NCBI GenBank assembly: GCA_963744645.1
Contig: CAVUUN010000014.1
Coordinates: 1,308,976 to 1,372,975, forward strand
Length of the DNA stretch: 64,000 nt
Reading direction: 5' to 3'
Origin: an uncultured Acidobacteriota bacterium
GTDB lineage: Bacteria > Acidobacteriota > UBA6911 > RPQK01
Positions 1 to 64,000 of the stretch are shown here, piece after piece. Made by a program: the position numbers and the translations under genes. Numbering within the stretch: position 1 is the stretch's first letter; every line of letters starts with the position of its first letter. The notes under the pieces are model-generated. The model worked only from the letters and a program-made list of their open reading frames with translations. It did no database searches and was not told where the DNA came from.

Positions 1-2137
1 GCCACTTGGCCGACAACCGCTCGAATGCCGCCGTCGCTCTCTGCTGATCCACGTCCCCCGCTATGGCGACGTGAGCCAGCTTCGGGGCAAAGGCCTGGCT
101 ATAGTACGCCCGGAGGTCGTCCAGGGTAATCGAGCCGACACTTTCGAGGGAACCCAGGGACGTGGCACCCAGGGCATGATCCGGTCCATAAACGATCTTC
201 CTGAAAACGTTCGTGGCGATTGCGGCCGGACTGGCCTGGTTCCGGCGAATCCGCTCCAGCGTCTGTCGTTTAACCCGGTCAAACTCCTTGGCATCCCAGC
301 GCGGCTCGAACAGTATCTCTTCGACAAGCGCCATCACCGCTTCCAGCTTGTTCGCCAGGCAGTTAGCCCCGAGAGTGATCGAGTCATCCTCGGCGTCCAG
401 TGAGATTGAGGCGCCCAGCTCGTCGATTGCCTCCTCCAACTCGACCGGCGTTTTTCGCGCCGTCCCCTGCATCATCAGATTTGCAGCGAGATTGGCGGTC
501 CCGGCCTTGGCGGTCGGGTCGAGAAGGTGCCCGCCCTTGATGACCAATGTGAAGGACACGAGCGGGAGTTCGCGCTGGCTGATACCGAGGACACGCATTC
601 CGCTTGCCGTCGAGACCTGCCATACCGGGGGAATCTTCAGGAGCGGCGATGCACCAGCAGCGGGTTCGACGCTCCTGTCGAACTTCGATGGAATCGCCTC
701 GATTTTCACCGATGCGCCGGCTGCCTGGGCCTGCTGCTTCTTCTGCTCGTCTATCGACTCGGCAGGGATCACGAATTTCTCGCAGCCGTTGGCCGCCAGT
801 TCCGGCTTGCCCTTAGGCACGAAGCAGGTCAGGACGAAGGGCTTTCCCTTGACGTACTTCTCATAGACTCGCCACACGTCTTTCGACTGCACGGCTTTGA
901 GCTTCTCGAGATGCTTCGGAAGATACCCGGCGCCACCGGCGTATTCCTCGTAACGGGCCAGCTGGAACCCTTTCGTCAAGACGCTGGATATCGAGTTGTA
1001 GAACCTCGTCTCAAGACCGGCCTTGATGCGGTCGAGATCCTTTTCGGTGAACTTCTCGGTCTCGAACCGGGTCAGCCGCCTCCTGAACCGCTGCCTCCAC
1101 GTCGGCAAGAGACTTGTCAGGGAAGGCTCGGACGTTGAACTGGAGGTAGCCGGTCAGTTCCTGGCTTGCCTGGTACACGGATGCCGCCGGCGCCAGCTTC
1201 TTTTCCTCCACGACAACCTTGTACATGGGGGATTTTTTGCCGTTGCCCAGAAGTTCCGCCAGCATATCGAGCGCGTAGCTGTCCGGTGAAAACTGCTCGA
1301 CGGTGGGATAGACCAGGGTGAAATCGGGCGAGCGCGCCAGCTCATCCTCGTAATAGGCCCGCTTGCTGGCCGTCGAGCTTCACCGGAATCGGCGCCATGT
1401 CTTTGACCTGGTTGTACGAGCGGATCTCGCCGAAGTACTTTTCGACCCACTTTTTCGCCTGCACCTTGTCGAAGTCGCCGGCCACAACCAGGGTGGCGTT
1501 GTTCGGCCCGTACCATTTCTTGTAGAACTCGTGCACGTCGGCCAGCGTGGCTTTCGACAAGTCCTCCAGCGGACCAATTGTCAGCCAGTTGTACGGATGG
1601 TTCGCCGGGAAAGAGCAGCTTGCTCAGGACATAGCCGGCCTGGCCGTACGGGCGATTGTCGTAGTTCTGCCGCTTTTCGTTCTGTACGACGCCTTGCTGG
1701 TTCGCGAACGCCTCCTGCGTGAGCTTGCTCAGCAGGAACCCCATTCGATCGGATTCGAGCCAGAGGACCATCTCCAGGCTGTTCTTCGGGACTACCTGGA
1801 AATATACGGTGCCGTCCCGGCTCGTCCCGCCATTGAGCGTTCCGCCGGCACCCTGGATCTTCTTGAAGAACTGGTCCTGTCCCACGTGCTGCGATTCCTG
1901 GAACATGATGTGTTCGAACAGGTGTGCAAACCCGGTGCGACCGGGCACTTCCCGATTCGAACCGACGTGGTACTGGATCGCGACCGCGACAATCGGGTCC
2001 GATTTGTCCTCGTGGAGAATGACCGTCAACCCGTTCTCCAGCTTGAACTTTTCATAGGGAATGCTAAGTTCCGCTCGGGCTGGGACGCCCAGGGCCAGTA
2101 CTCCCAAAACCAGCCAGACTGCAGTTCGGTAGCGCAT
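1..2137 (-). pseudogene. M16 (pitrilysin/insulinase) family zinc peptidase, long fused form continuing past the window start. The reading frame is broken by three apparent 1-nt indels near 1030, 1350 and 1610.
   Basis: ORF 1154..2137 has a signal peptide, the HLFEH (HxxEH) zinc-binding motif and an NEKRQ motif. It aligns residue by residue with the intact paralog at 4750..6120. The homologous sequence continues in other frames (1342..1560: HPYNWLTIGPLEDLSKATLADVHEFYKKWYGPNNATL; 1011..1265). It then continues as an uninterrupted minus-strand frame from about 1030 to position 1, encoding a second inactive-type M16 repeat (manual translation). Confidence 0.7.
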
Positions 2138-2149
2138 CTTATCTCCTTT

Positions 2150-3076
2150 CTAATTGATCAGGCCGCGGGCACTCAGCCAGTTCCTGCATGCTTCAGGCCA
2201 CCCCGATTCCGTCCCTCGGTCCTTGGCCAGCCCGTACCCGTGCCCGCCCTTCTGGTAGATGTGCAACTCCGCCGGGATCCGGTTCTTGACCAGGGCCTGG
2301 TAGTACAAAACGCTGTTAGCTACAGGCACCGCGGTATCGTCGGTGGAGTGAACGAGGAAGGCGGGAGGCGTTTCGGCATTAACCTGCAATTCGTTCGAGT
2401 ACCTGTCCACCTGTGCCTGACTGGGATCGCGACCGATGAGGCTGGTTCGTGATCCCAGGTGCGTGACTGACTGCTGGAAGGAAATCACGGGGTACATCAG
2501 GATCGAAAAATCGGGCCGGGCGCTCGTCGAGTCTGCCGGGCTGTATACGGGATCCGAATGCCGCGTGGAGGCGGTGGCCGCCACGTGACCGCCGGCCGAG
2601 AACCCCATGATGCCGATCTTGTTCGGGTCGATTTTCCACTCCGCCGCGCGCCGCCGCACAACCCGAATCGCTTCCTGAGCATCCTGGAGCGGTCCGACGC
2701 TTTTGTCCTGCATGATGGCGTCGGAAGGCAGCCGGTATTTCAGGACAATGCCCGCAATTCCCACCTCGTTGAACCAGGCCGCTATGTCATAGCCTTCATG
2801 ATCAATTGCCAGGCGGCCGTACCCGCCGCCCGGGCAGATGACAACCGCAGTGCCGTTCGCTTTTTCGGCCGGCGGGAGGTAAACCAAGAGAACCGGGTCG
2901 GTTACCTTAGCCACACGCGGCCGACCATTGTCCATGATCGTCTCTTCCCGGTAACCCGGATCGTCCCTGGCGCCCGGTGCACCGTTCGGCCAAAGTTTAA
3001 CCGTCGCGTTTTGAGCCTTGATGAGTGTCGGGACAAACAAGACAAGCAGGATCGAAACTGTAAGTGCTGTTCTCAT
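2150..3076 (-). CDS. Secreted alpha/beta-hydrolase esterase/lipase.
   Basis: Signal peptide MRTALTVSILLVLFV, a PGGGY oxyanion-hole-like motif and a GFSAGG nucleophile elbow. The upstream in-frame ATG at 3121 is less likely. Confidence 0.8.
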   Translation of the reverse strand: MRTALTVSILLVLFVPTLIKAQNATVKLWPNGAPGARDDPGYREETIMDNGRPRVAKVTDPVLLVYLPPAEKANGTAVVICPGGGYGRLAIDHEGYDIAAWFNEVGIAGIVLKYRLPSDAIMQDKSVGPLQDAQEAIRVVRRRAAEWKIDPNKIGIMGFSAGGHVAATASTRHSDPVYSPADSTSARPDFSILMYPVISFQQSVTHLGSRTSLIGRDPSQAQVDRYSNELQVNAETPPAFLVHSTDDTAVPVANSVLYYQALVKNRIPAELHIYQKGGHGYGLAKDRGTESGWPEACRNWLSARGLIN

Positions 3077-3221
3077 GTGAATATCCAATTCGCCGTCCCA
3101 GAGTGTACGCGCTTTTCGCACCGTATTTAAGGGCGGAGATGAAAGACGTTATCCACGAAGGACGAAGAGAGACAAACGCCATCCATACCACCCTGCCTTT
3201 ATTCGTGTCCGTTCGTCACAA

Positions 3222-3393
3222 CCCGCTTACTCCGCTAAAAAGCGCTGTGTGACGGCTCTGACAATGCTCGACAGGACGGTTGGCTTCTATGGCTTCTTAG
3301 AAGGATGGAGCGAGTGCAAGAACGGGGAACCGCGCCCGGTGCGAGGTATTGTCAGAGCCGCGCACGCAGCGCTTTTCAGCGGAGTAAGCGGGT
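3222..3393. repeat. Family A palindromic repeat element: inverted 42-bp arms CCCGCTTACTCCGCTAAAAAGCGCTGTGTGACGGCTCTGACA / TGTCAGAGCCGCGCACGCAGCGCTTTTCAGCGGAGTAAGCGGG flanking a spacer of about 90 bp.
   Basis: Near-perfect inverted repeat read directly from the sequence. Closely related copies are at 10670..10827, 41163..41319 and 63723..63825, with partial copies at 10941..10979 and 19875..19936. Confidence 0.85.
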
Positions 3394-3502
3394 GGTCACA
3401 GCCGGCATACCCCCGTGCCCTTGACTATTGCAGCGCGATACGTCTTTCGTCTGTATGGAATTCGGGTCTAGACTGTATGGATCAAACAGGAGGATGGTTC
3501 TC

Positions 3503-4612: not shown

Positions 4613-4630
4613 AGGTAGAAGGAATTTCGG

Positions 4631-4744: not shown

Positions 4745-4749
4745 GAGGC

Positions 4750-6120: not shown

Positions 6121-6122
6121 CC

Positions 6123-7625: not shown

Positions 7626-7635
7626 AGGGCAGGAA

Positions 7636-8939: not shown

Positions 8940-8986
8940 GCGGCAGGCCCGCGAAGATCGGCGGGCCCATCGTCATGCGAGAATGC

Positions 8987-10328
8987 CTACTCTGCCACGA
9001 CCTTTGCCTTCAAGCCCGCGGGCTTGGACGGTGAGGCGGTCTCGACGAGCCGCGCGGCCTGAACGCGGCCGACTCCGCGGAACTCAAGTGCGCCCATATC
9101 CCGAAACGAGCCGGTGATCGCCGCCGCGTCATAATCCGTCACGGCATATGGATCCGCGCTCGCTGTGTCGACCGCCGAGCAAGCTGGTGACCAGGTGGAA
9201 ATCTCCCACAGCCGGGTTGCTGAACATCGAGGCGACGGCCGCCGCCTGCGAAATATTCCCCTCGAGGTCGATTCCAATGTTGTTCTTCACCACCAGCAAT
9301 GCCGGGTCGAGCGTGCCCACCGCGTGATTGACGAGGTTATAGAACGTATTGTTGTAGATTTCGCTTGGCGGGTGTTCGCCCGGGCTCCAGGTCTTGGACC
9401 AATCCTTCATCCGGATGGCGAACTCGCCTTTTCCGACCCCGTCGTAGACTACGTTGTTGAAGATCCGGTGGCCGGCTTCCGGTTCGACAACGAAAGCCGC
9501 TATGCCGCATTGATTGTTGAACAGGCGATTGTTGAAGACGAAGTTCGAATGGCCGTCGATGGTGATCGTTCCATCGTTGCCCCTCTCTGGATCGCCTCCA
9601 TATTCGGCCCATCGCACCTGGTTGTGGAAGACATTACTGTGGACTCTGATGTTGTGGCTGTACTTCTTGGTTTCCACGGCGTTCTCGGTGAATCCCCGAG
9701 CGATGTTACCGCAGATCTCGAGGTTGTAAACCGCCTGCTCGGGCTTGGTCTTGTTCCCGAGGTAGAACGCCTCACCCCAGAATTCCTGCCGGCCGGTGTT
9801 CTCGATAACGCTGTCGCGCACAATGACATCGTGTTCGCCGGAGGTGATGCTTACGCCCGCGGCTCGAACATCCATGATGTGGATGTGCTCGACAATCACA
9901 TCGTGGACAGGCTCGGGCAGCGAGACCTCTTCACCCGCCCCGATTCGCACTGCGCCTCGGTTTCCTCCCGTCCCAACGCCGTCAAACCTGATGTCCTGAA
10001 GGGTCACATAACTCGCCCAGACCCTCGCGAGCCGTTCATTGGGCACCCGGACGACCGCCTTCCACCGGTTGGCAGCACGCACCACAACTGGCGCCTGTGC
10101 GGCTCCCCCTTTCACTACGAACAGCGGTTCAGTGTAAATACCATCCAGGAGGATGACCTGATCTCCCGGTCCGGGCTTTGACAAACCGGTCGCGAGGGCG
10201 CACGGCGAGGCCGAACTGCAGTCTGTGCCCGAACCGGCGGGGGAAACGTAAAAACTTTCGGATAAGGCCGGGCTGATGAACCAGAAAGAAATCAATGTCA
10301 ACGGTAAAGCTGATGACATGGATATCAC
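8987..10328 (-). CDS. Secreted right-handed beta-helix (pectate-lyase-like) protein with an apparent frameshift near 9165-9175.
   Basis: Signal peptide and repeated beta-helix NxxG-like motifs. The C-terminal GDFHL...AVDTASADPYAVTDYDAAAITGSFRDMGALEF consensus is only recovered by switching frame from ORF 9129..10328 to ORF 8987..9277. Confidence 0.7.
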
Positions 10329-12944: not shown

Positions 12945-14940
12945 GTGTTTGCGCGAGGGAGAGCATCATTGTCGAGCATTTCAAAGAAACGTGTTCATCT
13001 GTACCTGATCAAGCCGTCCAGCTACGACGATGATGGGTATGTGGTGCGGTACTTCCGAGGAGTCTTGCCGAGCAATACATTGGCATGCCTCGCGGCTCTC
13101 ACCGAGCGGACCCGTGAACGAGGCATTCTTCCTGGACTGGACTTGCGCACCCACCTGATCGACGAGACGGTCGCTCGGGTCGATGTCCGAAAGATCGCGC
13201 GCAACAACCGGGGGCCAAACAAGGCAATCGTCTGCCTGGTCGGCGTTCAAACCAGCCAGTTCCCGAGAGCGGGCGACCTGGCCCGAGAATTCAGAAAGGC
13301 CGGGGTTACTGTCCTCATCGGCGGTTTCCACGTCAGCGGATTGCTGAACACCGTCCCGGAGATTCCCGCCCAGATGCAGGAACTGCTCGACTGCGGCGTC
13401 TGCCTGGTCAAGGGCGAAGTTGAAGAAGCATGGGACGATCTCCTGAAGGACGCGGTCCTGGATCGGTTGAACCCGCTTTACGATTTCACCGAGGCCAAGC
13501 CGGACTTGCAGCACGCCCCGGTTCCCCTCGTCGACCGCAAATACATGAAGCGTTTCGCGTCGTCCGACTTTGGGACGGTGGACTGCGGCCGGGGGTGTCC
13601 CTACAAGTGCAGTTTCTGCACGATCATCAACGTCCAGGGCCAGAAGATGCGGTTTCGCTCCCCGGAGGCAATCGAGCTGGCGATTCGTGAGAACTATCGT
13701 ACCCGTAAAGTCTGGTTCTACTTCTTCACGGACGACAATTTCGCCCGTAATAAGAACTGGGAAAAGATATTCGACGCACTGATCCGGCTGCGGGAAGATG
13801 AGGGAATACCGGTCAGTTTCATGATGCAAGTGGACACCCAGTCCCACAAGATCGCGCGCTTCATCGACAAGGCTGCGAGGGCCGGCTGTTCCAATGTCTT
13901 TATTGGCATGGAGAGCATCAACGAAGAGAACCTCAAAGCCACCGGCAAGAACCAAAACAATGTCGATGACTACCGATACCTGATTGAGGCCTACCGGACG
14001 GCCGGAATCGTTACACACGCCGGCTACATCGTCGGCTTCCCACACGATACTCCGGAATCCGTGCAGGCGGACCTGGACAGGCTCATGAACGAGGTGCAGG
14101 TCGACATGGCCTCCTTCTTCATCCTGACTCCGTTGCCGGGCTCTCGGGACTATGTCCGCTATCTGAGCGAAGGCGTAGATCTGGACCCGGACTTCAACAA
14201 TTATGACTCGTTTCACCAGACCATGCCCCACACCGGCTTTCCAGAAAAGGGCAGCCTGGTCAAGACCAGTCATCACGCCTGGAACACCTTCTACAACCGC
14301 CGCAACATGGCACGCGTGCTCAACCGGTGCGGCGAAAAGCGTTACTGGCAGCTCTTTCGCAACTTCATCTGGTACAAAACGGCCATTGTCGTCGAGCGCC
14401 GACACCCGATGATGGCCGGATTCATGAGGCTGAAAGGGCGGAAGCAGGTGCGGCCCGGGGTTGCCCCGCTGTCGAGGTTCAAATACCTGAAGACACGGGC
14501 TAAAGAGCTGAAGGTTATCCCTGTCGGCCCTTTCGGCGGTGTTCCTCGAGATGCAGATGTTGTGGCTCGAGACCCGCAAACAGTCCGAACTGGAGAAGCG
14601 GATCAGGACCGAGATTGCCCAGCTGAGGGTGCAGAAGATTCACCTGAGCGACGTTCAGAGAGCGTACGCAGGGGTAAAGGCTTCGCTGCCCAGCGTCACC
14701 GTGCCCTCCAAGATGAAACTGTTCTGCCAGAAATGGAACCCGTTTACCTTGTCCGGTCAGTTCTATCTTCCGGAGGAAGTCCTCGGTTTCTGGAGGAGGA
14801 CCTCCGTGGAGCTCAGTAGAGGCCGAGCCTGGTGCGTTCTGCGGCCCACGTTGATGAAACGGGCCTGGCTGGACTTCAAGGTGACCGCCCACTTTGCGTT
14901 GGCCTTGGCGCTGAGGCCCAGCGACGAAATGTCGAGCTAA
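12945..14940 (+). CDS. B12-binding radical SAM protein (paralog 2), with an apparent 1-nt frameshift near 14535.
   Basis: CGRGCPYKCSFC motif and a B12-binding N-terminal domain. The plausible protein sequence continues in ORF 14539..14940 (VFLEMQMLWLETRKQSELEKRIR...), whereas the in-frame tail is Arg/Asp-rich nonsense. The start is GTG 12945 or TTG 12969. Confidence 0.75.
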
Positions 14941-15249
14941 AGGGACAGCTTGGATGTGCCCATAGGCAACCAAGAGCCGACCCGGGCGTCCGTGGGTCCC
15001 CTTTCCAGGGGGACCGGTCCGACTGGAAAGTCGGCCCCACTGGGATCGTGCCCGAGACGCGCTACTTCACCTTCCTGAACACCATCGTGACGAGGTCCTG
15101 GTCGTCCTGCCGCTTGTAATAGACGTGCACCGGCGTCCCTGACGAATAGCTGTGCTGTCCCGAGATCGAAGCGTCGTTAATCGCGAAGGAGCGCGTGCCC
15201 CACTTCGACGTTTACTGCGGACGCAGTAGATAGAGCTGTAATTATCTGA

Positions 15250-17075
15250 ATTGAGATAGTGTTACAGCTGATGTCGAGTATTACCCCTGGTTAGGTACTA
15301 CTGAGTTGATCCAAACCCAGGGTTTTGACCAGTGCCTGCTGGGTGAGAGTCTGTTTGGAAAGGACGCGCGCCGCCCGATACGGGCCCTTCTCCCCCTGCG
15401 GCGGGTAGAGGAGATGGAACTGCTGGATTTGCCCCAGTTCCTCCTTCAACTGTTCCATCGTGATACCCGGCCAGGCGCTTTGAGCCTGATGATGAACGTA
15501 GTGCAGCAGCGAGATCCCCAGCATGCAGCAGAAGGCGTGGATGCGGATCTTGCTGTCGGTCCAATGGTGCATCGGCCCCCAGCCCAGCCAGTCGCCCTCC
15601 TTCAGCCCCCGGAACACCTGTTCCAGGCGCTGTTGACCGGCATAGCCGGCGGCCACCTGCTCCCCGCTCCAGTCCAGCCGGTTGGTGAGCAGAACCGTCC
15701 GGCCCAATCGGTGGGTCATGATCCGGTGGAAAGCTTCATTGTTGAAGTCGAATTGCAGCTGCAGCCGTCCCCCCTTGTCCTCCAGCTGCCAGCTGACCAG
15801 GTCCCGAACCAGGGGCGCGCTCAGCCAGCGCTTGATCCGCCTCTCGACCTGGTCGGCCTTCAGTTTGCAGCCCGGCCGTGACAGATCCGCGGCCAGCCGT
15901 CGCAGGTTCGGCAGGATCTTCCCCAACGTCGTGGTCAGACTGTGGAGCTGTTCAGCCGCGAACGGTGACGAGTAGATCAGGACGCACAGGTAGTTTTGCC
16001 CGTGGACCAGGTGGGTTTCCGTGGCCACCCGCACGCCGGGTAAGGAGACGCACGCCGAGAGTTGATCAACGGGTCTGCTCGCGCAGCGCTTCCGGGGCCT
16101 GATTCCAGGGCAGAGCCGAGATCCAGCCGACTTGGGCCTGCTCCAGCAGCAGCGTATTCTCCAGCGCCGCCGATCCTTTATCGAAGACCAGGGTCACGGT
16201 CTGGCGCTCGATCCCGTTGCGGTCCAGCATCCGGCCGATGCGCTCAAGCGCCACCGGCAGTTCCAGGGCGTCCGGGACATTGCCGGGGTAAACGTGATGA
16301 CACAACCCCAGCCCGTTCTCGCCGTCCAGCACGTAGCTCAATCCCACCTGCCGCAGGTGATGGCGGCCCTGCTTGTTGTGCCCGCGCTGGGCCAGCTGAT
16401 TGCGCTCATTGGTGCTGGCGATATAGGTGTGGAAGTTGGTGGTGTCATAGGCGAGCAGCCGGCGGCTGACCAGTTTCCGGTCCTTCCAGCAGGCCAGCAG
16501 GCGCAGCTGGGCCTCTTCCAGATCATCCGGCCGCGCCTCCTCTCCCGTGCCGATCGCTTGGAAGCAATCCCAGAAAGCCTGCGAGGTGAAGCGTTCGGGA
16601 GGAAAGCGCCAAAGGTTCTCCAGCACGGTGCGTTCGTACCAGTCGGCGACTTCCGTCTTGGGGCCCGGCTGGCAGACCCGATGAATGGCGGCCAAGAGCA
16701 CATAGTGAGCCGTCGAAGGGCCGGAGCGGGGCGCGGGCCAGAGCTGCTCGAGGACCCCGAGGACGCCGCTGTCTCGGGCGGCCAGCCAGAGGGCGCCGGG
16801 AAGGCCATAGTCGGAAGTGGTGGCGCCAACCGGGACCGGAGCGGCCCGATCCTTGACCAGGGCGGCCAGCTTCTCAGCGGTGCCGAGGTAAGCCTGGCTG
16901 ACAATGCGAGGCTTGCCCTGAACCCGGGCGCTCTCGACGACATAGTAATAGACCTGATTGCCTTTTTTCTTGCCGATGACGCTTGCCATATAGGGTAATA
17001 CGAATGTTAACACAACCGGCAAGTGAGTCAAGAGAAAAATGAATTGCCACAGAAAAAACTGTTGTTATGGGGTAA
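15250..17075. mobile_element. IS1634-family (IS4 superfamily) insertion sequence.
   Basis: Transposase ORFs 16066..17031 and 15291..16034 on the minus strand. Candidate terminal inverted repeats GAGTATTACCCC (about 15279) and GGGGTAATACGG (about 17062). Confidence 0.65.
15291..17031 (-). CDS. IS1634-family DDE transposase, split by one apparent 1-nt indel at about 16040-16050.
   Basis: N-terminus MASVIGKKKGNQVYYYVVESARVQGKPRIVSQAYLG is typical of IS1634 transposases. The reading frame continues as ...RPVDQLSACVSLPGVRVATETHLVH in the +1 frame across the stop at 16066. Confidence 0.75.
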
Positions 17076-17111
17076 TACGGATGGATCTGCTAAAGGGGAA
17101 GGCCAAACGCT

Positions 17112-19847
17112 TCAATCGGTGGGAACTTGGGGCCGGGCGATTACCGCCCGCCCGGCGCTTCGCAGTAAACTCCCGCTAACCGTCAGTTTGGTTGGGGTCA
17201 TCCCCTCCACAGTGCCCTCGAAATCATAAACGCGACTGTCAGGTCTCGCCTGAGCCTTGGCTTTCCCCGAGCCGTCCGCCGCGGCTGCGTCCTGCTGTTC
17301 CCCCTTCTCGACGCCCCCGCTCGAATTCTTCCAAGCCGGGCCGGCTCGCCGCTCGAGCGAAGGGAGAGAAAGGTCCACATTGACAAACGCGCTCACCGTA
17401 AAGCCCAGATAGTTCACGTCGGTCGGAATCAGCTCCTCCTCGACAACGTCGTACTCCCTCCGCCAGACGTTCGCCCGGTTGTATGCGTTGAAAACGGACA
17501 GCCCGGCTGTCGCCTTGCTCCTTTCACCCACATAGAGGTCCCGGGTCACGGAGGCATCCAGGCGGTGGTAATCGGGCAACCGGGCTTCGTTCTTTCCTCC
17601 GAATTCGGGGACGCTGAACGTCCTGCCGTTGGGTAGGGTAATCTCCTCCACTCCCGTCGGCCCCGTAAACGGTTTCCCCGTCGCGAAGAGCCAGGTTCCT
17701 GAAACAGTCCAACGACCGTATCGCCAGCTGTCCACTAGCTTGAACTCGTGTGTGGAATCGTGCGACGCCGGGTACCAGGCAGAGGAAAGCTCCGGGAAAA
17801 GATGATTGACCCGCCCCAGCGTATACGTGACCCAACCGGTGTTCGCGCCGAATTTCTTCTGGAGGAGGAATTCGATTCCCTGCGCCTCGCCGCTGCCCCG
17901 GAAGAAGAGGTTGGTGAAATTGATCGGTTCGCGCTCGCCTTCGTCTGGCGGCTGACCGGGCGGCGGCAGAAACGCACCGGGCCGTCCAAAGAATCTCATG
18001 GAGCCGAATTCGGCCAAGCCCTTCAGGTCCTTCCGATAGCCCTCGATGTCGAAAAGGTAGGAGTCGGTTTCATAGCTGAGACCGACGATCGAATGAACTG
18101 CCGAACTGACCGGAACCGCACCCCCGTCACCCAATGTCCAGAAGTCCTGATCCCCTTCCAGGACGTCCTCCCTGACCAGGTTATTTGCAAATTGATAGTA
18201 AAGCCCTCCCGCAGCCTTGAAACGAAGCCGCTTGCTCGCGTCCACGATCACGGACAAGCGCGGCTCCAGGTAGGTCCTTTTGGAACGATCGTAGTAGGTG
18301 GCTCGGAGCCCCGGCGTAAGGGTCAGCCGGCCGATCGAGAGCCAGCGGTCCTGGAGGTAGAGCGAGTGATGCGATCCGATCTGGCTCCGGTTCATGCCGG
18401 CGTCGGCCTCATTCATCCGAAAGTCGTAGTTGACCGCGTTTCGGGTGCTTCTGAGACCGAACTCGATCAGGTGCGAGTGGCCGAGACTCAAGGCGTTGTC
18501 CAAAGAGACTGTGTAGTCGGTCAGCCGGTTGTTTTCTCCTGACCCGCGTTCGGTCGTGGTCTCTTCATCCGTATCCGGATCCACGATTGTCATGCTGGAG
18601 CTCCGATCGCGCACTTTGAAGTAGCGTGAGTGGGCCAGCGTGAGAGAACTGTTGAGCGACTGGAACCACTGATGCGACCAGTTCAGACTGACTCCCGTAT
18701 TGCCCCAACGGGAGAGATTTGTGATTTTGCCGCTGATCGGCCGGGTCTGATCTCCGAAGCCGCCCGGCAAGCTCATCTCCCGGGAGCTGTCGAGGTTGTC
18801 CTGCCCGTTGTAGAGACTGACGAAAAACCGGTCGCGCCGGCTGAGGTTGTATGTTAAGCGTGCGTTGACATCGTAAAAGGTGGAATCGGGCTGCACCGCC
18901 ATCGGTCCCCCACCCCCTGGGCCGCCGCCTGGGCCTCCGGGCGACTGGTTCAGGTTGTAGCTGTTCCGGATCCTGTCGCTCAACGGGCTTTGAAACGACC
19001 GGCGGCCGGCAAAAAGGGCGGATGCCTTGCGGCTTATTGGAACCTCCGTATAGCCGTTGTAACTGAGCAGGCTGGCGCCGCCGCCGATCGCGACCTCTTC
19101 GTTATTCCCGCTTCGCCCATCCAGTTCCAGCACGCTCGAGATCCGGCCTCCGTATTTCGCCTCGAAACCACCCTTGTGCATGGTGATGTTCTCGACCGCG
19201 CGTGCGTTGAACGCGCTGAAGATGCCGTAGAAGTGATCGACATCGTAAACCGTGAAACCGTCGAACAGGACCAGGTTTTGATCGGGCGTGCCCCCGCGAA
19301 CGTACAGCCCGGCCGATGCTTCGTTGCTCGCGCTGATTCCGGGCATCAGTTGAAGCGAACGGAAGATGTCCTTCTCGCCGAGACTTGGAAGGTTGGCGAT
19401 CTGCGCGGGCGCGATGGAAACAACGCCGATGTTCTGGGAGGCGTCCATGAGCTTGGGAACGTCGTATTTGACCGTCACCTCGTAATTCAATTGAGCCACT
19501 TGCAGTTCTATTTCCAGCGTCATCCGTTGTCCGGGAGCCAATTCGACGGTCCTCTCCGAGGTCTCGAATCCCGACAAGGAGGCGGTCAGGCTCCAGGTTC
19601 CCCCCGGGACACCGGACAGGCGGTAGTTGCCATAGTCGTCCGTGACGACGGAGAAGCTCGTGCCCTTAAGTGAAACAAGGACTCCCGGCAATGGAAGTTT
19701 TTCGGCGTCCCGAACAGTGCCTTGAATAGACCCCTCCGACTTGTCGCCCTGAAGACCGGAAGCCGGCTGCCCCATCACGAGCGAACCCAGGAGGACAAGC
19801 ACTGTGGCTGCAATAGCGAAAAATAGAAGGAATTTCAGTCTGCCCAT
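17112..19847 (-). CDS. TonB-dependent outer-membrane receptor with an N-terminal carboxypeptidase-regulatory-like domain.
   Basis: Signal peptide, CarbopepD_reg domain, TonB plug and a 22-strand barrel pattern, which is Acidobacteria-type. It has an unusual extension of about 70 aa after the last barrel strand. Confidence 0.85.
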   Translation of the reverse strand: MGRLKFLLFFAIAATVLVLLGSLVMGQPASGLQGDKSEGSIQGTVRDAEKLPLPGVLVSLKGTSFSVVTDDYGNYRLSGVPGGTWSLTASLSGFETSERTVELAPGQRMTLEIELQVAQLNYEVTVKYDVPKLMDASQNIGVVSIAPAQIANLPSLGEKDIFRSLQLMPGISASNEASAGLYVRGGTPDQNLVLFDGFTVYDVDHFYGIFSAFNARAVENITMHKGGFEAKYGGRISSVLELDGRSGNNEEVAIGGGASLLSYNGYTEVPISRKASALFAGRRSFQSPLSDRIRNSYNLNQSPGGPGGGPGGGGPMAVQPDSTFYDVNARLTYNLSRRDRFFVSLYNGQDNLDSSREMSLPGGFGDQTRPISGKITNLSRWGNTGVSLNWSHQWFQSLNSSLTLAHSRYFKVRDRSSSMTIVDPDTDEETTTERGSGENNRLTDYTVSLDNALSLGHSHLIEFGLRSTRNAVNYDFRMNEADAGMNRSQIGSHHSLYLQDRWLSIGRLTLTPGLRATYYDRSKRTYLEPRLSVIVDASKRLRFKAAGGLYYQFANNLVREDVLEGDQDFWTLGDGGAVPVSSAVHSIVGLSYETDSYLFDIEGYRKDLKGLAEFGSMRFFGRPGAFLPPPGQPPDEGEREPINFTNLFFRGSGEAQGIEFLLQKKFGANTGWVTYTLGRVNHLFPELSSAWYPASHDSTHEFKLVDSWRYGRWTVSGTWLFATGKPFTGPTGVEEITLPNGRTFSVPEFGGKNEARLPDYHRLDASVTRDLYVGERSKATAGLSVFNAYNRANVWRREYDVVEEELIPTDVNYLGFTVSAFVNVDLSLPSLERRAGPAWKNSSGGVEKGEQQDAAAADGSGKAKAQARPDSRVYDFEGTVEGMTPTKLTVSGSLLRSAGRAVIARPQVPTD

Positions 19848-39607: not shown

Positions 39608-40250
39608 TTACTTCTGCTTCAGGCTCCCCTGCGGTGGCGGCGTCGGCAGAGGCGCCTTTGCTTTCAATGTCAACGGCACGCCCGATGAGTTCTTCAGGGT
39701 GGCCATCACTTCGGTTGGTGCCTGGGCGGAAGTAAGCCCGAAAAAGAAGGAGCTTTCACCTTTACCTGCCGCTGAGCCCGAGCAAGGGTGGGTCTCAAAA
39801 GTGAAGGTGATGGTCTTTCCGACCTGATTGGCCGAGACCGGTCCGACTACACCCAATCCGCCGGACGTCGTGACGAAGACCTGGTCCAACAGCCCGTCCC
39901 CATCGTAATCGATCGATTTCACGGGACCGAAGTCGATCAAAAGCTCGGTGACGCAGGACTTAGGTTTGCCGAGGACAAGGTTTCTCAGATCGATCCGGTA
40001 CAGATAGGCGTACAAGCCGGCCGCCGGCCGTTCCTGCCTCGCCAACCGGAAAGAGCCGAGACTGCAGAAAGCCCTTCCCTGTAAAGCCGGGAACGGTGAT
40101 GTCAGTAGCCAGATCCTGCACCGTGATCTTGCAGTCCGTGTCGAACTTGCAATTGATGGCCGGGGCGGATACCTTGACGATTTTGAGCGGGCCGGCGAGG
40201 CTCACTCCGAGAGTAAGAATCAAGACAATACCGATCGCGGTTCGTTTCAT
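39608..40250 (-). CDS. Secreted hypothetical protein with an apparent frameshift near 40045-40060.
   Basis: ORF 39960..40250 supplies a signal peptide (MKRTAIGIVLILTLGVSLA). ORF 39608..40045 continues in another frame with overlapping, non-repetitive sequence. Confidence 0.55.
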
Positions 40251-43102: not shown

Positions 43103-44811
43103 ATGCGCCGAATACAAACTGACGTCCTGGTTGTCGGCGGCGGAGCGACCGGCACCGGAGTGCTCCGGGATCTCGCAATGCGCGGGTTTCGCGCGGTCCT
43201 TGTCGAGCGGCGCGATCTGGCATCGGGCACGACCGGCCGTTACCATGGCCTGCTCCACAGCGGCGCGCGCTACGCGGTCAATGACCCGCCCGCTGCACTT
43301 GAGTGCATCAACGAGAACCGCATTCTCCGCACGATAATCCCCCAGTGCCTCGAGGATACCGGCGGTTTGTTCGTCACCACACCGGGAGACGATGCCTCTT
43401 ACATCCCGCTCTTCCTTGGAGGCTGCCAGGCAGCCGGCATACCGGTCGAGGAAGTACCGGTCGCGACGATGCTTCGCGAGGAGCCCAGGCTCAACCCCGC
43501 GATCACCCGTTGCTTCCGAGTGCCGGACGCCTCCGCTGATTCTTTTCTCGCGGCCGATTTGAATGCGCGGTCGGCGAAGGAACATGGCGCGGAGATCCTG
43601 CCCTACCACGAGGTCACGAAACTGCTCCGGCAGGAAAGCGGGTCTCCAAGGATCGTGGGCGCGGTGTGCATGGATCTCGCCAGCGGTGAAGAGATCCAGA
43701 TTCACTCGGACTTCGTGGTGAATGCCTCTGGTGCGTGGGCAGGCAGGATTGCAGCGAGCGCGGAGATCGAGATTCCCATGCGCCCCGGCAAAGGGACCAT
43801 GGTCGCCGTGAACCACCGCGTCGTCCATTCGGTCATCAACCGGTGTAAGCCACCCGCTGACGGGGATATCCTGGTCCCTGCCCACACGGTGTCGATCATA
43901 GGAACCACCGACGAGCCGGTCGCCGATCCTGACTCCCTCGGCATCGAGCCATGGGAGATCGCGCTGATGTTCGAGGAGGGGGAACGGATGGTTCCGGGCT
44001 TCCGGGATTTGCGGATCCTGCGCGCCTGGACCGGTGTTCGTCCGCTCTATCAGCCGACCGAATCGGCGCACTCCCGGCGGATAACGCGGGCCCACGTCCT
44101 GATCGACCATGAGTTCCAGGACGGCGTGGGCGGTCTTCTGACAATCACCGGCGGGAAGTGGACCACCTACCGGCTGATGGCCCAGGTGACCGTGGATAAA
44201 CTCTGCGAGAAGCTGAACGTCTCTCGTCCCTGCCGCACTCACCTGGAACCACTTGCCGGTTCGGAATCGTTTCATTCGCTCGGCGCCCGGCTGCGTCATG
44301 TGGAAACCGGTCAGTTGCAGGATTCATTGATTTGCGAATGCGAACTGGCGACCGAGGAGGACATTACCAAAGCCATCCGCGTGGGCCGGGCGCGAACCAT
44401 CGACGACGTTCGTCGCGACACGCGACTCGGGATGGGTCCCTGCCAGGGAAGTTTTTGCACTTACCGGATCGCCGGGATGCTCGGAGGCGAGGAGGAAAGC
44501 CGGGTCGCCGACATCAACTCCTCATTGAGGGAGTTCCTGCAGGCCCGCTGGCGAGGGTTGCGCCCAGTGCTCTCGGGCAGCCAGCTGAAGCAGGAGCGCC
44601 TGGCCGAGATGATCTATGCGAACGTGATGGCGATCGATTCCCTTCCCGGTCGGCAATCCACGGTCTTCGCCAACCCCGCCGATGTCCCCGACTGGCGAGA
44701 GGACGGGACAACTGGCCACTCTTCGTCCGGCAGTGTTTCCGGGGCGATCGCTCCTCAGGATTCCGCCCACGGGCAGGCGACTCCCCGAGGGCCGTCCACC
44801 TTCTCGAGTTC
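43103..44811 (+). CDS. glpA: Anaerobic glycerol-3-phosphate dehydrogenase subunit A (FAD; BFD-like 2Fe-2S domain).
   Basis: FAD fold VLVVGGGATG and a C-terminal BFD-like CECE...CQGSFC motif. It runs in frame into glpB in this assembly. The boundary is approximate. Confidence 0.75.
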
Positions 44812-46073
44812 CTCGGACATCCTGGTCATCGGCGGAGGGCTGGCCGGGCTGATGACTGCCTGGTCTGCGGCCAGACGCGGCCGCACGGTTCGGGTCATCA
44901 CTCACGGACAAGGAGCGCTTTTGTTTTCGGCCGGCACGGTCGACATCCTGGGCCATGACCCCGAGAATAAGGCCGTCGTGCATAATCTGCGGGCCAGTCT
45001 GGAGCGACTGATCGAACGCGATGCCCAGCACCCCTATACCCTGGCGGGTCTCGCGAACCTCGAGGCCGGCGTCACCGAATTCGCCCGCGTGTGCGAGGAG
45101 GCCGGCTATCCGATGGCGGGTTCCCTTCAAACCAATTCCCTTCACCCGACCGCCTGCGGCGGGCTTCGACCTGCTTCTCTCCTGCCGGAATCGATGTCGG
45201 CGGGGGTCCTGGACCCCAGGGACCGCGAGACCTCGTTCCTGATCGTCGGCCTGGCGGGTTTTCTCGATTTCTTTCCCGCCCTGGTCGCCAGCAACCTGCA
45301 GGATGCTGGTTACCCGACCGACTGGATCACGCTTGAAATGCGGCTGCCCTCGCGTCGTCGCTCGCTCAACTCAAAGGTCCTTGCCCAGTTCTTCGATGAT
45401 CCCGCCTTCTGTGACGATTTCTGCGATCTGCTCGTTTCACGCCTGCCCGCCCGCTCCTCGACACTCCGCCGACGACTCGGTTTCCCGGCGGTTCTGGGGT
45501 TAGCCGACACCCGGCGAATCCGGGAGCAGATCGAGCACAAGACCGGCTGCGCGGTTTTCGAGATCCCCGGTCTGCCACCATCCGTACCCGGGCTTCGACT
45601 CCAGAACTGCCTGGTCAGGGCCTTGCGAAACGCGGGGGTCGAGGTACTGGACGGAATGGAAGCGATCTCGGTCGAGCGTACCGGCAATAGAATCTCCAAG
45701 GTCTGGACTGAAGCTGCTTCGCGTTCCAAACCGCACACGGCCCGCGAATTTGTCCTGGCCACGGGCGGGATTCTTAGCGGTGGACTGGTGGTTCGCCCTG
45801 GCGGACAAGTGGTCGAGCCGGTCTTCGGACTCCCGGTGACCAGCCCTGGGGAAGCCACACGTGCCCTGTTCCTTGACCCGGGAGGGCACCCGGTTTTCAG
45901 CACCGGTGTCCGCGTGAATGACCGGTTCCAGCCGATCGACGAGGAGCGCCGAATCTCCGCCGAGAACCTCTTTGCGGTTGGCTCCATTCTCGGCGGGTCC
46001 CGACGTGGTCCGCGATGCCTCGATGGAAGGGATCGCCCTTGCAACCGCGCACGCGGTAGGAGAGCTCTTGTGA
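44812..46073 (+). CDS. glpB: Anaerobic glycerol-3-phosphate dehydrogenase subunit B. The 3' end needs a 1-nt correction near 46000.
   Basis: ILVIGGGLAGL FAD motif. Removing one C from GTCCC at about 45998 restores ...GSDVVRDASMEGIALATAHAVGELL-stop, with a TGA overlapping the glpC GTG start. Confidence 0.7.
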
Positions 46074-47320
46074 GCGCGCGAAGAAAACCGGTCGAGCTCA
46101 CCCTCGACCAGTGCATCAAGTGCAACATCTGCACCGCCGCCTGCCCGGTTTCTGCCGTCACGGATCTCTTCCCGGGACCGAAATACTGTGGCCCGCAGGC
46201 GGCGCGTTTTCGAGAGCCAGGGCTGTCCATCCCGGCCGATTCCGTCGACTACTGCAGCGGCTGTCGCGTGTGCAACATGGTCTGCCCTTCCGGCGTTCGA
46301 ATCGCGGAAATGAACGCCCGCGCCCGCGCGGCAGTCGTGGAGCAGGGGCACGTCCCCTTGAGGTTGCGGGTCAGGAACAATCTGCTCGCGCGCCCGGAGC
46401 TTCTTGGACGCCTCGGGAGCCCTCTTTCTTCGCTCGTTAACCGGCTGTCCGGCCTGTCGGCCGGACGACGCTTCGCCGAGCTGGCTCTCCATATCCACCG
46501 CGACGCGCCGGTTCCCCGATTTGCGCCCCAGCGGTTCAGCCGCTGGTTTCGTTCCCGCCCGAACCCCGTTAAGAACCGCTCCGCTGACAGGCTTGTCGTC
46601 TACTTTCACGGATGCTCAACCGAGTACTACGAGCCCAGGGTCGGACAAGCGGCCGTTCGCATCCTCGAAGCCAACGGGTTCGAGGTCATCGTCCCGCCGC
46701 AGAACTGCTGCGGTTTGCCCTTGCTCTCCAACGGAGAGTTCAGCGCCGCCCGGCGCTATCACCTGCGCAACGTGTCGAGCCTCTACGGGTTCGCCCGACA
46801 AGGGATACCGATCGTGGGGACGTCGACGAGCTGCACTCTGACGCTTAAGGAAGAGGCGCCCGAGCTGCTCGATCTGGATGACGACGCAACCAGGGCGGTG
46901 GCCGAAGCGACATTTGACTGGAATGAATTCCTGCTCCTCCTGATCGAGCAGGGACGGCTATCGCTCGCTCCGCGCCCGGTTCCCCTCGAGCTCGTTTACC
47001 ACGTTCCCTGTCAGTACCGCGCCCATCGCCTGGGCACTCCTGGCATCGAGCTGCTGCGGATCGTGCCCGAGCTGCGAATCGTGGAAAGCCAGGCGGACTG
47101 CTGCGGGATCGCAGGGACCTACGGCTACAAAAAGGAGAAATACGACGTCGCGATGAAAGTGGGAAGGCCGCTCTTCGACCTTGTCGGCCGATCCGAATCA
47201 CCCGTCGTGCTGTGCGACAGCGAAACCTGCCGCTGGCAAATCACGCACGCGACCGGACGACGGGCCATCCACCCCGTGGAACTGCTCGCATTCGCTTGTG
47301 GCTTGGCGGAAAAGCCGTAA
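46070..47320 (+). CDS. glpC: Anaerobic glycerol-3-phosphate dehydrogenase subunit C (two 4Fe-4S ferredoxin motifs plus CCG domains).
   Basis: CIKCNICTAACP and CSGCRVCNMVCP cluster motifs and two cysteine-rich CCG domains. GTG start at 46070. Confidence 0.8.
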   Translation: MSARRKPVELTLDQCIKCNICTAACPVSAVTDLFPGPKYCGPQAARFREPGLSIPADSVDYCSGCRVCNMVCPSGVRIAEMNARARAAVVEQGHVPLRLRVRNNLLARPELLGRLGSPLSSLVNRLSGLSAGRRFAELALHIHRDAPVPRFAPQRFSRWFRSRPNPVKNRSADRLVVYFHGCSTEYYEPRVGQAAVRILEANGFEVIVPPQNCCGLPLLSNGEFSAARRYHLRNVSSLYGFARQGIPIVGTSTSCTLTLKEEAPELLDLDDDATRAVAEATFDWNEFLLLLIEQGRLSLAPRPVPLELVYHVPCQYRAHRLGTPGIELLRIVPELRIVESQADCCGIAGTYGYKKEKYDVAMKVGRPLFDLVGRSESPVVLCDSETCRWQITHATGRRAIHPVELLAFACGLAEKP

Positions 47321-47330
47321 GAAAGAAAAC

Positions 47331-47469: not shown

Positions 47470-48238
47470 TTAGCTCGTCGTTCGCGGCAACTCGCGGATC
47501 TTGATGTTCCGGAACCAGAACACACTCCCGTGGTCCTGGAGGGCGATCCGGCCGCTCTTTGCCTTCCCGTAATCCGGCGCTTCCTTCCACTTCCCGGAAT
47601 CTCGCAGCTTGTTCCACTCGTCGGTCCAGCGCTCAAACTCCAGGATCTTCTTCCCGTTGAGCCAATGCTCGACGTGTTTACCGTTGACCACGATCCTTGT
47701 GTTGTTCCATTCCCCGACCGGTTTGAGCTGCTTCTGGTCGTTGGGAAGGTGCATGGCGTAGTTGGCGCCAGCCATCTGCCAGTCCTCGAGCTTTTGGGGA
47801 AAACCGACATCGTCGATGAACTGGTATTCCGGGCCGGTCATCCACGCCGCCTTGTACTTCGGATCCTCCACGACCGCATAGATGATGCCGCTGTTGCCGC
47901 CCTTGGACGTCTTCCAATCGATGCTGATTTCGAAGTTTTCGTACTCCTTTTCCGTCACGAGATCGGCTCGCAGGTCGCTTCCGTAGTTGCCTTCTGTTCC
48001 CACGGATTTGAGGGTGCAGTTCTCAACCATCCAGGACTTGGTGCTCTGGCCGTTGTAACCATGCCACCCCTCGAGACTCTTCCCGTCGAAAAGGAGCTTC
48101 CAGCCGGCCGCCTTTTCCTTGTCGGTCAGCTTGTTTGCCGACCCGCAGTCGGATTTTGTCGCCTGCTGGGCTTGAACGGTGCCGACAGAAACCGAACAAG
48201 AAAACGATGCTGATTGCGATGAGAAATGTACGTGTCAT
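47470..48238 (-). CDS. Secreted DUF1080 (LamG-like, 3-keto-disaccharide hydrolase family) protein, with an apparent frameshift near 48185.
   Basis: DUF1080 domain in ORF 47470..48030. The signal peptide MTRTFLIAISIVFLF is in ORF 48023..48238. The segments join (VSVGTVQAQQATKSDCGSANKLTDKEKAAGWKLLFDGKSLEGWHGY...) after a 1-nt shift in a T-run. Confidence 0.7.
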
Positions 48239-60300: not shown

Positions 60301-63300
60301 ATGAGAAGCGGTCGTCGATCACTGCTTTTGATTGTTTGCTTGTTCGCACTTAGCCCGGTGGGCCTGGCCGCCGACGGCGCTGTAAAGGTCTGGGAAGAAA
60401 AGACCACGATTCCCACGTACCTCGCCGGTGAACCCGAGCTCAACCCTATGTTCTACTTCGGCCGCACCTCGCAAGGGGCCGAGGGACACGTCTATCCATA
60501 CCCCCTCTATGACAGCCTGACCCACCAGAAAGTGGACAAGACGTACACGCTGGTCTACCTGGAGAACGAGTACATCCGAATCGGGGTGTTGCCGGAGATC
60601 GGAGGCCGGATTTTCGAAGGCGTCGACAAGACGAACAACTACAACTTCTTCTACCGTCAGCACGTCATCAAACCGCAGTTGATCGGGCTGATCGGCGCCT
60701 GGATCTCGGGCGGGGTCGAATGGAACATTCCTCACCATCACCGCGCCAGCACTTTCATTCCCGTCCAGTACCGAATCGAAGAGAATCCGGATGGGAGCAA
60801 GACGGTCTGGGTGGGCGAGTTGGAAATCCGTCATCGGATGCGGTGGGCGGTCGGTTATACCCTCCGTCCAGGCAAGGCGTATCTCGAAGCCTCCCTGCGG
60901 ATCCTCAACCGCACACCGGTCGTCAACACAATGCTTTGTTTCGCGAACGTGGCGGTTCACACCAACGAAAACTACCAGGTCATCTTTCCGCCGAGCACCC
61001 AGTTCGGAACTCATCACCACAAGCGGGAGTTCATAAACTGGCCCGTCGCTTCTACCCGTTACGGCGGGGCCGACTTTACTAAAGGCGTGGACGTCTCCTG
61101 GTACAAGAACCACGACGGCGCGAACTCCATCTTCGCCTGGAATTACGAGGACGACTTCCTGGCCGGGTACGACCACGGCAAGCAGGCGGGACTGATGAGC
61201 GTGGCGGATCACAACGTCGTTCCGGGCAAGAAACTGTGGACGTGGGGGAACGGGCCGCGCGGCAGAATGTGGGACAAGCTGCTGACCGACGAGGATGGAC
61301 CGTACATCGAGCTCATGGTCGGAGCTTACTCGGACAACCAGCCCGATTACAGCTGGCTCCAGCCGTACGAGGTCAAATCCTTCCAGATGTTCTGGTACCC
61401 GTTCCGCAACATCGGCGGGGTGAAGAAGGCGAACCTGGACGCAGCGGTAAATCTGGAGATCGACAAAGAGCGAAATGCAACCGTCGGCTTCTACACCACT
61501 TCCGCCCATAGCGGTGCGAATGTCAGTTTAAAGGCCGGGGCCACGGTCCTGTTCCAGGAAACCGTCACCATTGATCCCGGTAAGCCGTACATCAAGAAGC
61601 TCAAGATTCCGGAGGGGATCGACGAGCACGACCTCCTCGCATCCATTTCTGCGGACGGACGCGAGCTCGTGTCCTATTCACCGATTCGTCTCGAGAAAAA
61701 GGAGATGCCGGCGCCAGTGACTCCGCCCGCTGCTCCCGCGGACATCAAGACGAACGAGGAGCTTTATCTCACCGGCCTGCGCATCGAACAGTTCCACAAC
61801 CCGACGCTCGATCCCGAGCCTTACTGGGAAGAAGCCTTGCGCCGGGACCCGGGGGACATCCGGGTCAATACTGCGCTCGGCATAAGACTCTTCAAAAAGG
61901 CCCGATTTGCGGATGCCGAAAAACTGTTCCGAAAGGCGATCGAGAGGCTGACCGACAAGTACACGACGCCGAAAGAAATGGAGCCGTTCTACTACCTCGG
62001 CCTCGCCCTGAAGGCCCAGGGGAAACAGGACGAGGCTTACACCTGGCTCTATAAGTCAACCTGGAGCCTCGGCTGGAAAGCAGCGGGCTATTACTCGGTC
62101 GCTGAGATTGCCGCATCCCGGGGGAACTTTCCCGAGGCATTGGCCTTGGTCGAGAAGTCCCTGGAAGGGAACGCGATCAACGTCCGGGCGTTGAATTTGA
62201 AGGCCGCGACCTTGCGGCACTTGGGCAGGCCCGGCGAAGCGCTCGAGGTCCTCGAGGCGGCCGCCCGACTAGCAGATCCGCTCGACGTCCGGGTGTTAGC
62301 CGAAAGGTGGCTGGCTTCCCGCAACTCAGCTGATCTTCAGAGACTGGTTGGCGAAATGACCGCGCACCCGGCAGACGCGATCGAAACCGCGGCCGAGTAC
62401 CTGGACGCGGGACTCTGGCAGGACGGGCTCGACGTGCTCTCCCAGAGGGCGCTGGTGAGTGCCGGCTCGAAACCGCCCTCACCGATGCTCTTTTACTACA
62501 TGGGATTCTTCTCCAAAAAATTGGGCCGCCAGGACAACGCGGCAGACGCCTTCCGCGCAGCCGCAAAGATGTCGCCGGACTACGTTTTCCCCTTCGAGGC
62601 GGAGGCCATCGAAGTGCTTCGGGCAGCCATGGCCGCCAATCCCAAGGACGCCCGGGCGCCTTACTACCTTGGCAACCTCCTGTTCGACTGGCAGCCGGAA
62701 GAGGCGACCCGGCTCTGGGAACAGGCAGCCGCCCTTGATCCCAACTTCCCGATTGTTCATCGCAACCTGGCACTGGCTTACTCTCACAGCAAGGATGCCA
62801 AAGGCCTCGAAAAGGCAATCGCCAGCCTGGAGAAGGCCGTTTCCCTTCCCGTCAAACACGCCGTTCACTTTTCGGAATTGGACGAGTTGTACGCGGCCGC
62901 CGGCACGCCGGTTCAGAAGCGTCTGAGCCTGCTCGAAAAGAACGAGCAGATTGTCCTGAAACGCGACGATAGCCTTTCCCGTGCCATTGCCCTGAAGGTA
63001 TTCGCGGGTGAGTACGACCAGGCGATCGGGCTCATGACGGGCCGCACCTTCGCCGTTTGGGAAGGAGGCTCGATTACGGTCGCGGATTCCTGGACGGATG
63101 CTCACCTGCTGCGCGGGCAGGCACGCCTGGCGGCCGGACAAGCCCGGGAAGCGCTGGCGGACTACGAGACGGCCATGAATATTCCGGAGAACCTCCCGTC
63201 CGAGCGGGCGTGAGGGTTACCGAGCCGCGGAGCTGAACTACTGGATCGGAGTTGCCCAGGAGGCTCTGGGGGACACTGGTAAGGCGAAAGCGTCCTGGGA

Positions 63301-63676
63301 GAAGGCTGCGGGTGGCCCCCTCGATCGCCGGCCGGAGGCGGATGGTTCCCGTCCCCGGCGCCGCACCGAGAGCCAGCAGTACTTCCAGGCCTTGGCGATG
63401 CAGAAGCTGGGTCAGAACGAGAAGGCGACGGCCATCTTCCAGGCATTGGTTGACTCGGCAGCGCAATCACTCAAGGAGAGATCCGAGATCGACTTCTTTG
63501 CTTCTTTCGGAGAGCAGCAGTCCCAGCGCTCACGCCTGGCACAGAACCATTACCAGGCCGGCCTGGGTTATCTTGGCCTTGGCGAAAAGCAAAAGGCCAA
63601 GCAGGAAATGGCGGATGCTTTGAAAGTCAGCCCGGACCACCTCGCCGCCAAGCAGGCCCTGGCCGCGATGGACTAA
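60301..63676 (+). CDS. Secreted DUF5107-domain protein with C-terminal TPR repeats (about 1120 aa), with an apparent 1-nt frameshift near 63200.
   Basis: AAGGAG RBS, signal peptide, DUF5107-like N-terminal 400 aa and multiple TPRs. After the stop at 63213 the protein continues in the +1 frame (EGYRAAELNYWIGVAQEALGDTGKAKASWEKAAG ... 63392..63676). Removing one C from CCTCCCG joins them. Confidence 0.75.
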
Positions 63677-63722
63677 CGGTTTGCCGAGTAGTTTTCAGAA
63701 CCGCGCACGCAGCGCAGTCCGG

Positions 63723-63825
63723 TCAGAGCCGCGCACGCAGCGCTGTCCAGCGGAGTAAGCGGGTTCCCCCTGCCCAGCGAAGCCGCTTGCTCCGCTGGAA
63801 AGCGCTGCGTGCGCGGCTCTGAAAG
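63723..63825. repeat. Family A palindromic repeat element (copy 5, short loop).
   Basis: GTCAGAGCCGCGCACGCAGCGCTGTCCAGCGGAGTAAGCGGG ... CCGCTTGCTCCGCTGGAAAGCGCTGCGTGCGCGGCTCTGA. Confidence 0.85.
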
Positions 63826-63863
63826 AGAAAAGCATGGGCCCCCACTCACACTTGGAGGAACAA

Positions 63864-64000
63864 ATGAAGAAAGTAGCTTGCAGCCTGGTTCTGTTCGCGA
63901 TCACGGTCACCATGGCCGTTGCGGCCCCGCCGGATTTTTCCGGCAAATGGGTGATGAACAAAGAGAAGAGCGAATTCCGCCTTGGTCCGGACGGCCCCAG
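63864..64000 (+). CDS. Secreted hypothetical protein (5' fragment; continues past the window end).
   Basis: GGAGG RBS 7 nt upstream of the ATG, and signal peptide MKKVACSLVLFAITVTMAVAAP. Confidence 0.5.
   Translation, partial: MKKVACSLVLFAITVTMAVAAPPDFSGKWVMNKEKSEFRLGPDGP

Follow-up and report, generated by a model that had tools for sequence, protein, structure and literature searches.

Single-base insertions that interrupt genes in a 64-kb stretch of an Acidobacteriota metagenome contig: probable consensus errors rather than pseudogenes

A stretch of 64,000 nt from an uncultured Acidobacteriota bacterium (assembly GCA_963744645.1, contig CAVUUN010000014.1, positions 1,308,976 to 1,372,975), referred to here as the window, carries at least eleven frameshifts in otherwise intact genes and so raises the question of whether these genes are pseudogenes of the organism or were broken during assembly. 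A preliminary description of the window, made from its letters alone, had listed the frameshifts, attributed them to probable homopolymer indel errors and stated that restoring one base recovers conserved motifs. The breaks analyzed here were found to be extra bases, and the comparisons described below indicate that they are probably consensus errors of the deposited, presumably long-read assembly rather than pseudogenes, a reading to which we assign a probability of about 0.88.

The near-identical strain used for comparison (ENA ERZ25039545 contig_42689, 508 kb; the comparator) was found via P0001 (989 aa, 99% identical) in a homologue search with the 1420-aa open reading frame (ORF) that runs through glpA, glpB and glpC in the window. 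Comparator stretches L081, L082 and L083 were aligned to window positions 9683-64000, over which nucleotide identity was 99.1-99.6%, apart from two insertions present in the window only. A syntenic stretch with 74-92% amino-acid identity (L084 from GCA_964421755.1) covers window positions 1-12780 and served as outgroup. The best named homologues of window proteins were from Acidobacteriota metagenome-assembled genomes (MAGs), at approximately 72-75% identity, and point to that phylum as the likely source. Breaks were placed by tblastn of the called proteins of relatives against the window and by nucleotide and junction alignments, and adjacent ORF pieces were scanned with Pfam and NCBIfam profiles.

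All 11 reported frameshifts were recovered by profile pieces, tblastn and alignments, each within about 50 nt of the position first given (Table 1). Comparison with close relatives, which the preliminary description had recommended and which was carried out here by tblastn and DNA alignment, confirmed a break at every one of the 11 sites, and tblastn with the called proteins of relatives returned no further coding frameshift in the window. The two halves of each broken gene matched adjoining segments of a single family or orthologue in different frames, and the window (60% G+C) has a clear third-position GC signal whose phase switches inside several genes. The proposed repair had the wrong sign: a base has to be removed, not restored, in every case, and removal of one base per site repairs each break, so that all events are +1 insertions, at a density in the consensus of roughly one per 5 kb. 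After these one-base deletions, single ORFs were obtained that are long enough for the full-length proteins of the comparator, and glpAB and glpC were separated.

The pieces of the M16 peptidase gene, which is broken three times within 530 nt, matched Peptidase_M16 positions 2-119, M16_C positions 2-59 and 71-160 and a second M16 unit (Pfam), contiguously across the four frames, and tblastn of a 946-aa syntenic M16 orthologue switched frame in the order -1/-2/-3/-1. The repaired product (711 aa) aligned over 100% of its own length to 946-aa homologues, with a best identity of 86%, and identity to the outgroup was kept at 83-92% in all four pieces, which argues that no decay followed the first shift. 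In glpK, FGGY_C positions 2-88 and 86-197 were matched in two different frames, and the repaired GlpK was colinear with 80 GlpK genes of other genomes in a genome-collection scan (relatives at no more than 72% identity).

Table 1. Broken genes, extra bases and other features of the window, with equivalent positions for insertions in the comparator
Feature	Coordinates in window	Strand	Position first reported	Details
M16 (insulinase-type) peptidase gene	1..2137	-		four frame pieces; 3' end outside window
M16 peptidase, extra base	1609 (1607..1611)	-	1610	within CCCGG; C or G
M16 peptidase, extra base 2	1358..1375	-	1350	exact base ambiguous in stretch
M16 peptidase, extra base 3	1077	-	1030	GCGCTG to GCGGCTG, coding strand
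~444-aa protein gene, weak beta-helix match	8990..10319	-		comparator product 443 aa, outgroup 444 aa
444-aa protein gene, break	9184-9190	-	9170	one extra base
Radical SAM gene	12969..14937	+		656 aa in comparator
Radical SAM gene, extra base	14516	+	14535	extra T
IS1634-family insertion sequence (IS), ~1.96 kb	15210..17175	-		absent from comparator
IS1634-family transposase, break	16069-16090	-	16045	one extra base
213-aa hypothetical protein gene	39611..40250	-		comparator 213 aa, intact
213-aa protein gene, extra base	40023	-	40050	extra G within CCCC run
glpK	41530..43042	+		504 aa once repaired
glpK, extra base	42574	+	42565	extra A
glpA-glpB fusion gene	43103..46070	+		989 aa; last 25 codons out of frame through the 45994 insertion
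glpAB, extra base	45994	+	46000	extra C within GGGGG run
glpC	46070..47320	+		416 aa; read through from glpAB, giving 1405/1420-aa chimeric ORF
DUF1080 (3-keto-disaccharide hydrolase) gene	47473..48237	-		255 aa; insertion at 48188 cuts first 17 codons
DUF1080 gene, extra base	48188	-	48185	extra G within AAAA run
DUF5107-TPR gene	60301..63673	+		1124 aa
DUF5107-TPR gene, extra base	63210	+	63200	extra G
Comparator insertion, L083 14892	18260 (equivalent)			
Comparator insertion, L081 780	33891 (equivalent)			
Comparator insertion, L082 11683	56845 (equivalent)			
Comparator insertion, L082 11763	56924 (equivalent)			
Intergenic single bases, present in window and absent in comparator	10594; 48285; 53220; 55067			insertion or loss
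Tandem arrays (examples)	7740-7818; 20865-21071; 31084-31122; 31407-31550; 32697-32854; 48361-48421; 50194-50273; 52244-52381			intergenic

Comparison with the near-identical strain covers seven of the 11 events, the other four being the three in the M16 gene and the one in the IS transposase, and all seven are absent from it, as established by DNA alignment for 14516, 40023, 42574, 45994, 48188 and 63210 and by gene length for 9184-9190. The corresponding comparator genes are intact (glpK, 504 aa; glpAB, 989 aa; glpC, 416 aa; DUF1080, 255 aa; DUF5107-TPR, 1124 aa; radical SAM, 656 aa; two hypotheticals, 213 and 443 aa). Insertions of the same kind, private to the other assembly, were likewise observed directly: the comparator has four +1 insertions of its own, at positions where the window ORFs are intact. 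The insertion at 18260 splits a TonB-dependent-receptor-like gene into calls of 555 and 368 aa, and those at 56845 and 56924 split one gene into calls of 110 and 466 aa. For position 33891, alignments with distant homologues run to the extreme C-terminus of the window's version, and the extra base therefore belongs to the comparator. The comparator gene calls of 555 and 368 aa, 579 aa, and 110 and 466 aa are thus also artefacts.

The extra bases share a signature. All 12 of the ORF-breaking window positions and all four comparator positions are +1 insertions, with no deletion among these 16 coding events. Among the locatable extra bases, seven of 11 are unlike both neighbours and the other four merely make a pair from a single base, while three split runs of 4-5 bases (background 3.5% of positions, P=0.006). 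Mononucleotide runs are not preferentially lengthened, and homopolymer-length miscalling, the classical Nanopore/454 error, was rejected as the mechanism together with the corresponding part of the preliminary description. No shared sequence motif (e.g. a methylation site) was evident at the insertion sites, and no run there exceeds 5 nt. Isolated 1-nt indels lay within 10 nt of a single-nucleotide polymorphism (SNP) in five of 17 cases (9.6% expected, P=0.019), which would be expected where a consensus is built from a mixed or thinly covered region.

Recent genuine mutations would likewise look private to one strain, and at least one gene of this strain has truly been disrupted, the IS at 15210-17175 having cost a TonB-dependent-receptor-like gene its last 49 codons. 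That relaxed selection, a small population or a mutator background has let frameshifted pseudogenes accumulate is nevertheless an unlikely account of the breaks. Between the two strains, 125 synonymous and 57 nonsynonymous substitutions were counted (182 coding substitutions), with a ratio of nonsynonymous to synonymous polymorphism (pN/pS) of 0.157 and not one nonsense change; strain differences are under purifying selection, and the level of identity kept by the M16 pieces agrees in giving no other sign of decay. Multi-base or clustered indels were all intergenic (12 of 12 events, mostly in tandem repeats), although the compared sequence is 87% coding. Coding indels are therefore purged efficiently in this lineage, and it is implausible that ten real frameshift mutations in genes should have persisted within 45 kb. 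The lesion spectrum is equally unlike that of genome decay, all 16 coding events being insertions. Replication slippage duplicates the neighbouring base and bacterial mutation spectra are deletion-biased, whereas most of the inserted bases here are not duplicates of a neighbour and deletions are lacking. Moreover, central-metabolism genes such as glpK are affected, a single gene has three breaks within 530 nt, and the other assembly has private events of the same kind. Were the extra bases real after all, they would represent non-templated +1 insertions that struck functional genes in a burst, either tolerated or forming the first stage of genome decay, which we consider very improbable; the sister population would then show the same process at other sites, implying an unusual insertion-only mutational mechanism.

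In a mixed case, most breaks would be consensus errors, with genuine lesions in a few genes, such as that of the split IS1634 transposase or the M16 peptidase. Defective copies of insertion sequences are common, and it is the M16 and IS events that fall outside the comparison with the near-identical strain; both, however, show the same +1 signature as all the others, and the M16 pieces are free of decay, so that this combination is given a still smaller share than real mutation throughout. Programmed recoding, in which +1 ribosomal frameshifting or transcriptional slippage would read through the shifts, has the uniform +1 direction and nothing else to recommend it and can be dismissed, as the sites have no common motif, runs there reach 5 nt at most, the sister strain and the outgroup have uninterrupted orthologues whereas programmed sites are conserved among relatives, and IS1634-family transposases fit a single 483-position protein model, in the middle of which the transposase break falls.

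Several points weigh against consensus error. The signature, insertion-only and non-duplicative, is unlike the classical homopolymer-length error, and we know of no documented pipeline with insertion-only errors. The case was built on assembled sequences. Real structural differences do exist between the strains, namely an IS and a palindromic insertion. Finally, the M16 homologue search returned no full-length M16 protein of ~99% identity from the comparator contig, and the M16 gene may be broken in the comparator too, at the same or other sites. The preference for error over pseudogenes, in which the preliminary description is upheld, comes from the convergence of the remaining evidence: the absence of seven of seven comparable events from a strain that has four private events itself, the uniform +1 change, the low pN/pS without nonsense changes, and the confinement of multi-base indels to intergenic sequence.

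As to how the breaks arose, spurious single bases were probably inserted in the consensus of the 1.75-Mb, presumably long-read metagenome contig; each insertion would shift the frame of an otherwise intact gene, and gene callers would then report fragments of it or run it into the next gene, as in the 1405-aa GlpAB-GlpC product. The pattern suggests an error of consensus building or polishing, for example under low coverage or strain mixture. Several of the artefact ORFs are present verbatim among public proteins of a 1,751,643-bp contig deposited at NCBI and ENA (P0362, the 1405-aa chimera; P0514, a 327-aa M16 piece; P0527, a 365-aa GlpK; P0529, a 970-aa DUF5107 protein), and the insertions therefore belong to the deposited assembly and were not introduced later. 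The lengths of the two metagenome contigs (0.5 and 1.75 Mb) and the name 'contig_42689' point to Flye-type assembly from long reads. Nanopore-only MAGs below ~40x coverage are reported to retain indels that fragment gene calls (PMC9262707), and the Microflora Danica long-read project used Flye with one round of Medaka (PMC12313526); a link of ERZ25039545 to that project was not found in the paper's supplements or in the literature.

The glp genes required the natural and the artefactual part of one ORF to be told apart. The best 120 homologues of the 1420-aa ORF are 964-1022 aa long and cover 67-70% of it, save one (P0098) that covers 37%, and GlpA-GlpB fusions of ~980-1000 aa number in the hundreds across many metagenomes and MAGs. 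Given these lengths and coverages, the GlpA-GlpB fusion is natural and widespread. A natural GlpA-GlpB-GlpC triple fusion was rejected, there being no homologue of ~1400 aa among the best 120 and the sole 1405-aa sequence being P0362 of this very assembly. In the comparator, the end of glpAB and the beginning of glpC share 4 nt. In the window, the frame in which glpAB starts has no stop in the final 25-codon stretch after 45994 and is shared with glpC, so that the ORF continues to the end of glpC. The GlpC join alone is an artefact, produced by the extra C at 45994. The 'glpABC chimera' of the preliminary description was accordingly right about GlpC and mistaken about GlpA and GlpB. The locus resembles the anaerobic glycerol-3-phosphate dehydrogenase GlpABC in that the domains of GlpA (DAO and BFD-like [2Fe-2S]), GlpB (FAD_binding_2) and GlpC (4Fe-4S dicluster and CCG) are present and adjoin glpK. 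It differs in the GlpA-GlpB fusion, which hundreds of homologues share, and in the additional fusion to GlpC, which is confined to this assembly. A 'fusion protein' thus needs to be checked part by part, the GlpA-GlpB portion being genuine here and the GlpC addition not. Between the convergent glpC and DUF1080 genes, inverted arrays of a 10-nt repeat at 47328-47448 (CGCGGATCTA x2.7 and its complement ATCCGCGTAG x2.7) could form a large hairpin, which is probably a bidirectional terminator.

The IS belongs to the IS1634 family by its transposase model, its inverted repeats and its presence/absence polymorphism between the strains. The transposase matches NF033559 positions 2-252 and 269-482 of 483 in two frames; the terminal inverted repeats are 10 nt long (GTTTACTGCG/CGCAGTAAAC), the right end has five additional nt (TCCCG), and no target-site duplication was recognised at the element ends. 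The TonB-dependent-receptor-like gene that it severs lies at 17178-19847, with the cut-off tail of 49 codons at 15065-15208. The palindromic insertion, a window-only stretch of ~390 bp (31123-31512), has a Cys/Met-metabolism gene on one side and a CarboxypepD_reg/TPR gene on the other. It contains a long near-perfect palindrome (~31140-31400) flanked by GAGTTCT-type heptamer repeats and may be a miniature inverted-repeat element or an inserted hairpin.

Tandem arrays of 4-18 copies of varied 7-8-nt units (TCAGTTG, GGTTCGG, GTCTAACC, GGAGTTC, CAGTGCG, TGCCCGC, GTCAGCCG and others) occupy many intergenic regions, and it is chiefly in these arrays that the two strains differ in length; the arrays call to mind the cyanobacterial heptamer STRR repeats. 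Upstream of an amino-acid permease gene, the intergenic region (23520-23865) contains 2.6 copies of a 130-nt unit, and these copies differ between the strains. For the GHL6-family protein (33821-35803), homologues have 45-90 more N-terminal residues than the 579-aa call of the comparator. These longer homologues fit a 660-aa ORF from the ATG at 35803, which would overlap the start of a divergent HrpB-like helicase gene (35618-38218) by ~185 nt; one or other start has probably been miscalled.

The value of these results lies in data quality and not in biology, and the breaks should not be taken for a biological feature. The artefact ORFs, whether chimeric (GlpAB-GlpC) or truncated (M16, GlpK, DUF5107), can mislead analyses of domain architecture, pseudogenes and pathway completeness. 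The signature itself (insertions only, mostly unlike both neighbours, with some short runs split), seen in two independent, presumably long-read assemblies, may help to diagnose failures of polishing or consensus building.

Among known systems, pseudogene-rich genomes such as those of Mycobacterium leprae, recent host-restricted pathogens and symbionts are marked by deletion bias, nonsense mutations, IS expansion and relaxed selection. The window resembles them in its many frameshift-interrupted genes and differs in having neither deletions nor nonsense changes, a pN/pS of 0.157 and one IS. In the allele-specific assembly of Trypanosoma brucei, apparent frameshifts were traced to the collapse of two haplotypes into one consensus (PMC8445201). 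Indels from a polymorphic population vanish there once alleles are separated, and the proximity of five of 17 indels to a SNP offers a parallel here, with the difference that T. brucei is a diploid eukaryote and that a strain mixture is a possibility in the present case. Indel errors of long-read sequencing (Nanopore/PacBio) are classically length miscalls of long homopolymers, often deletions, whereas only insertions were found here, mostly unlike both neighbours and in three cases interrupting runs of 4-5 bases. They have been reported at about one indel per 5 kb, as here, in low-coverage long-read MAGs (PMC9262707), and correction tools such as Kastor address them (PMC12007338); the likeness to the window lies in single-base indels that split or fuse genes and are private to one assembly.

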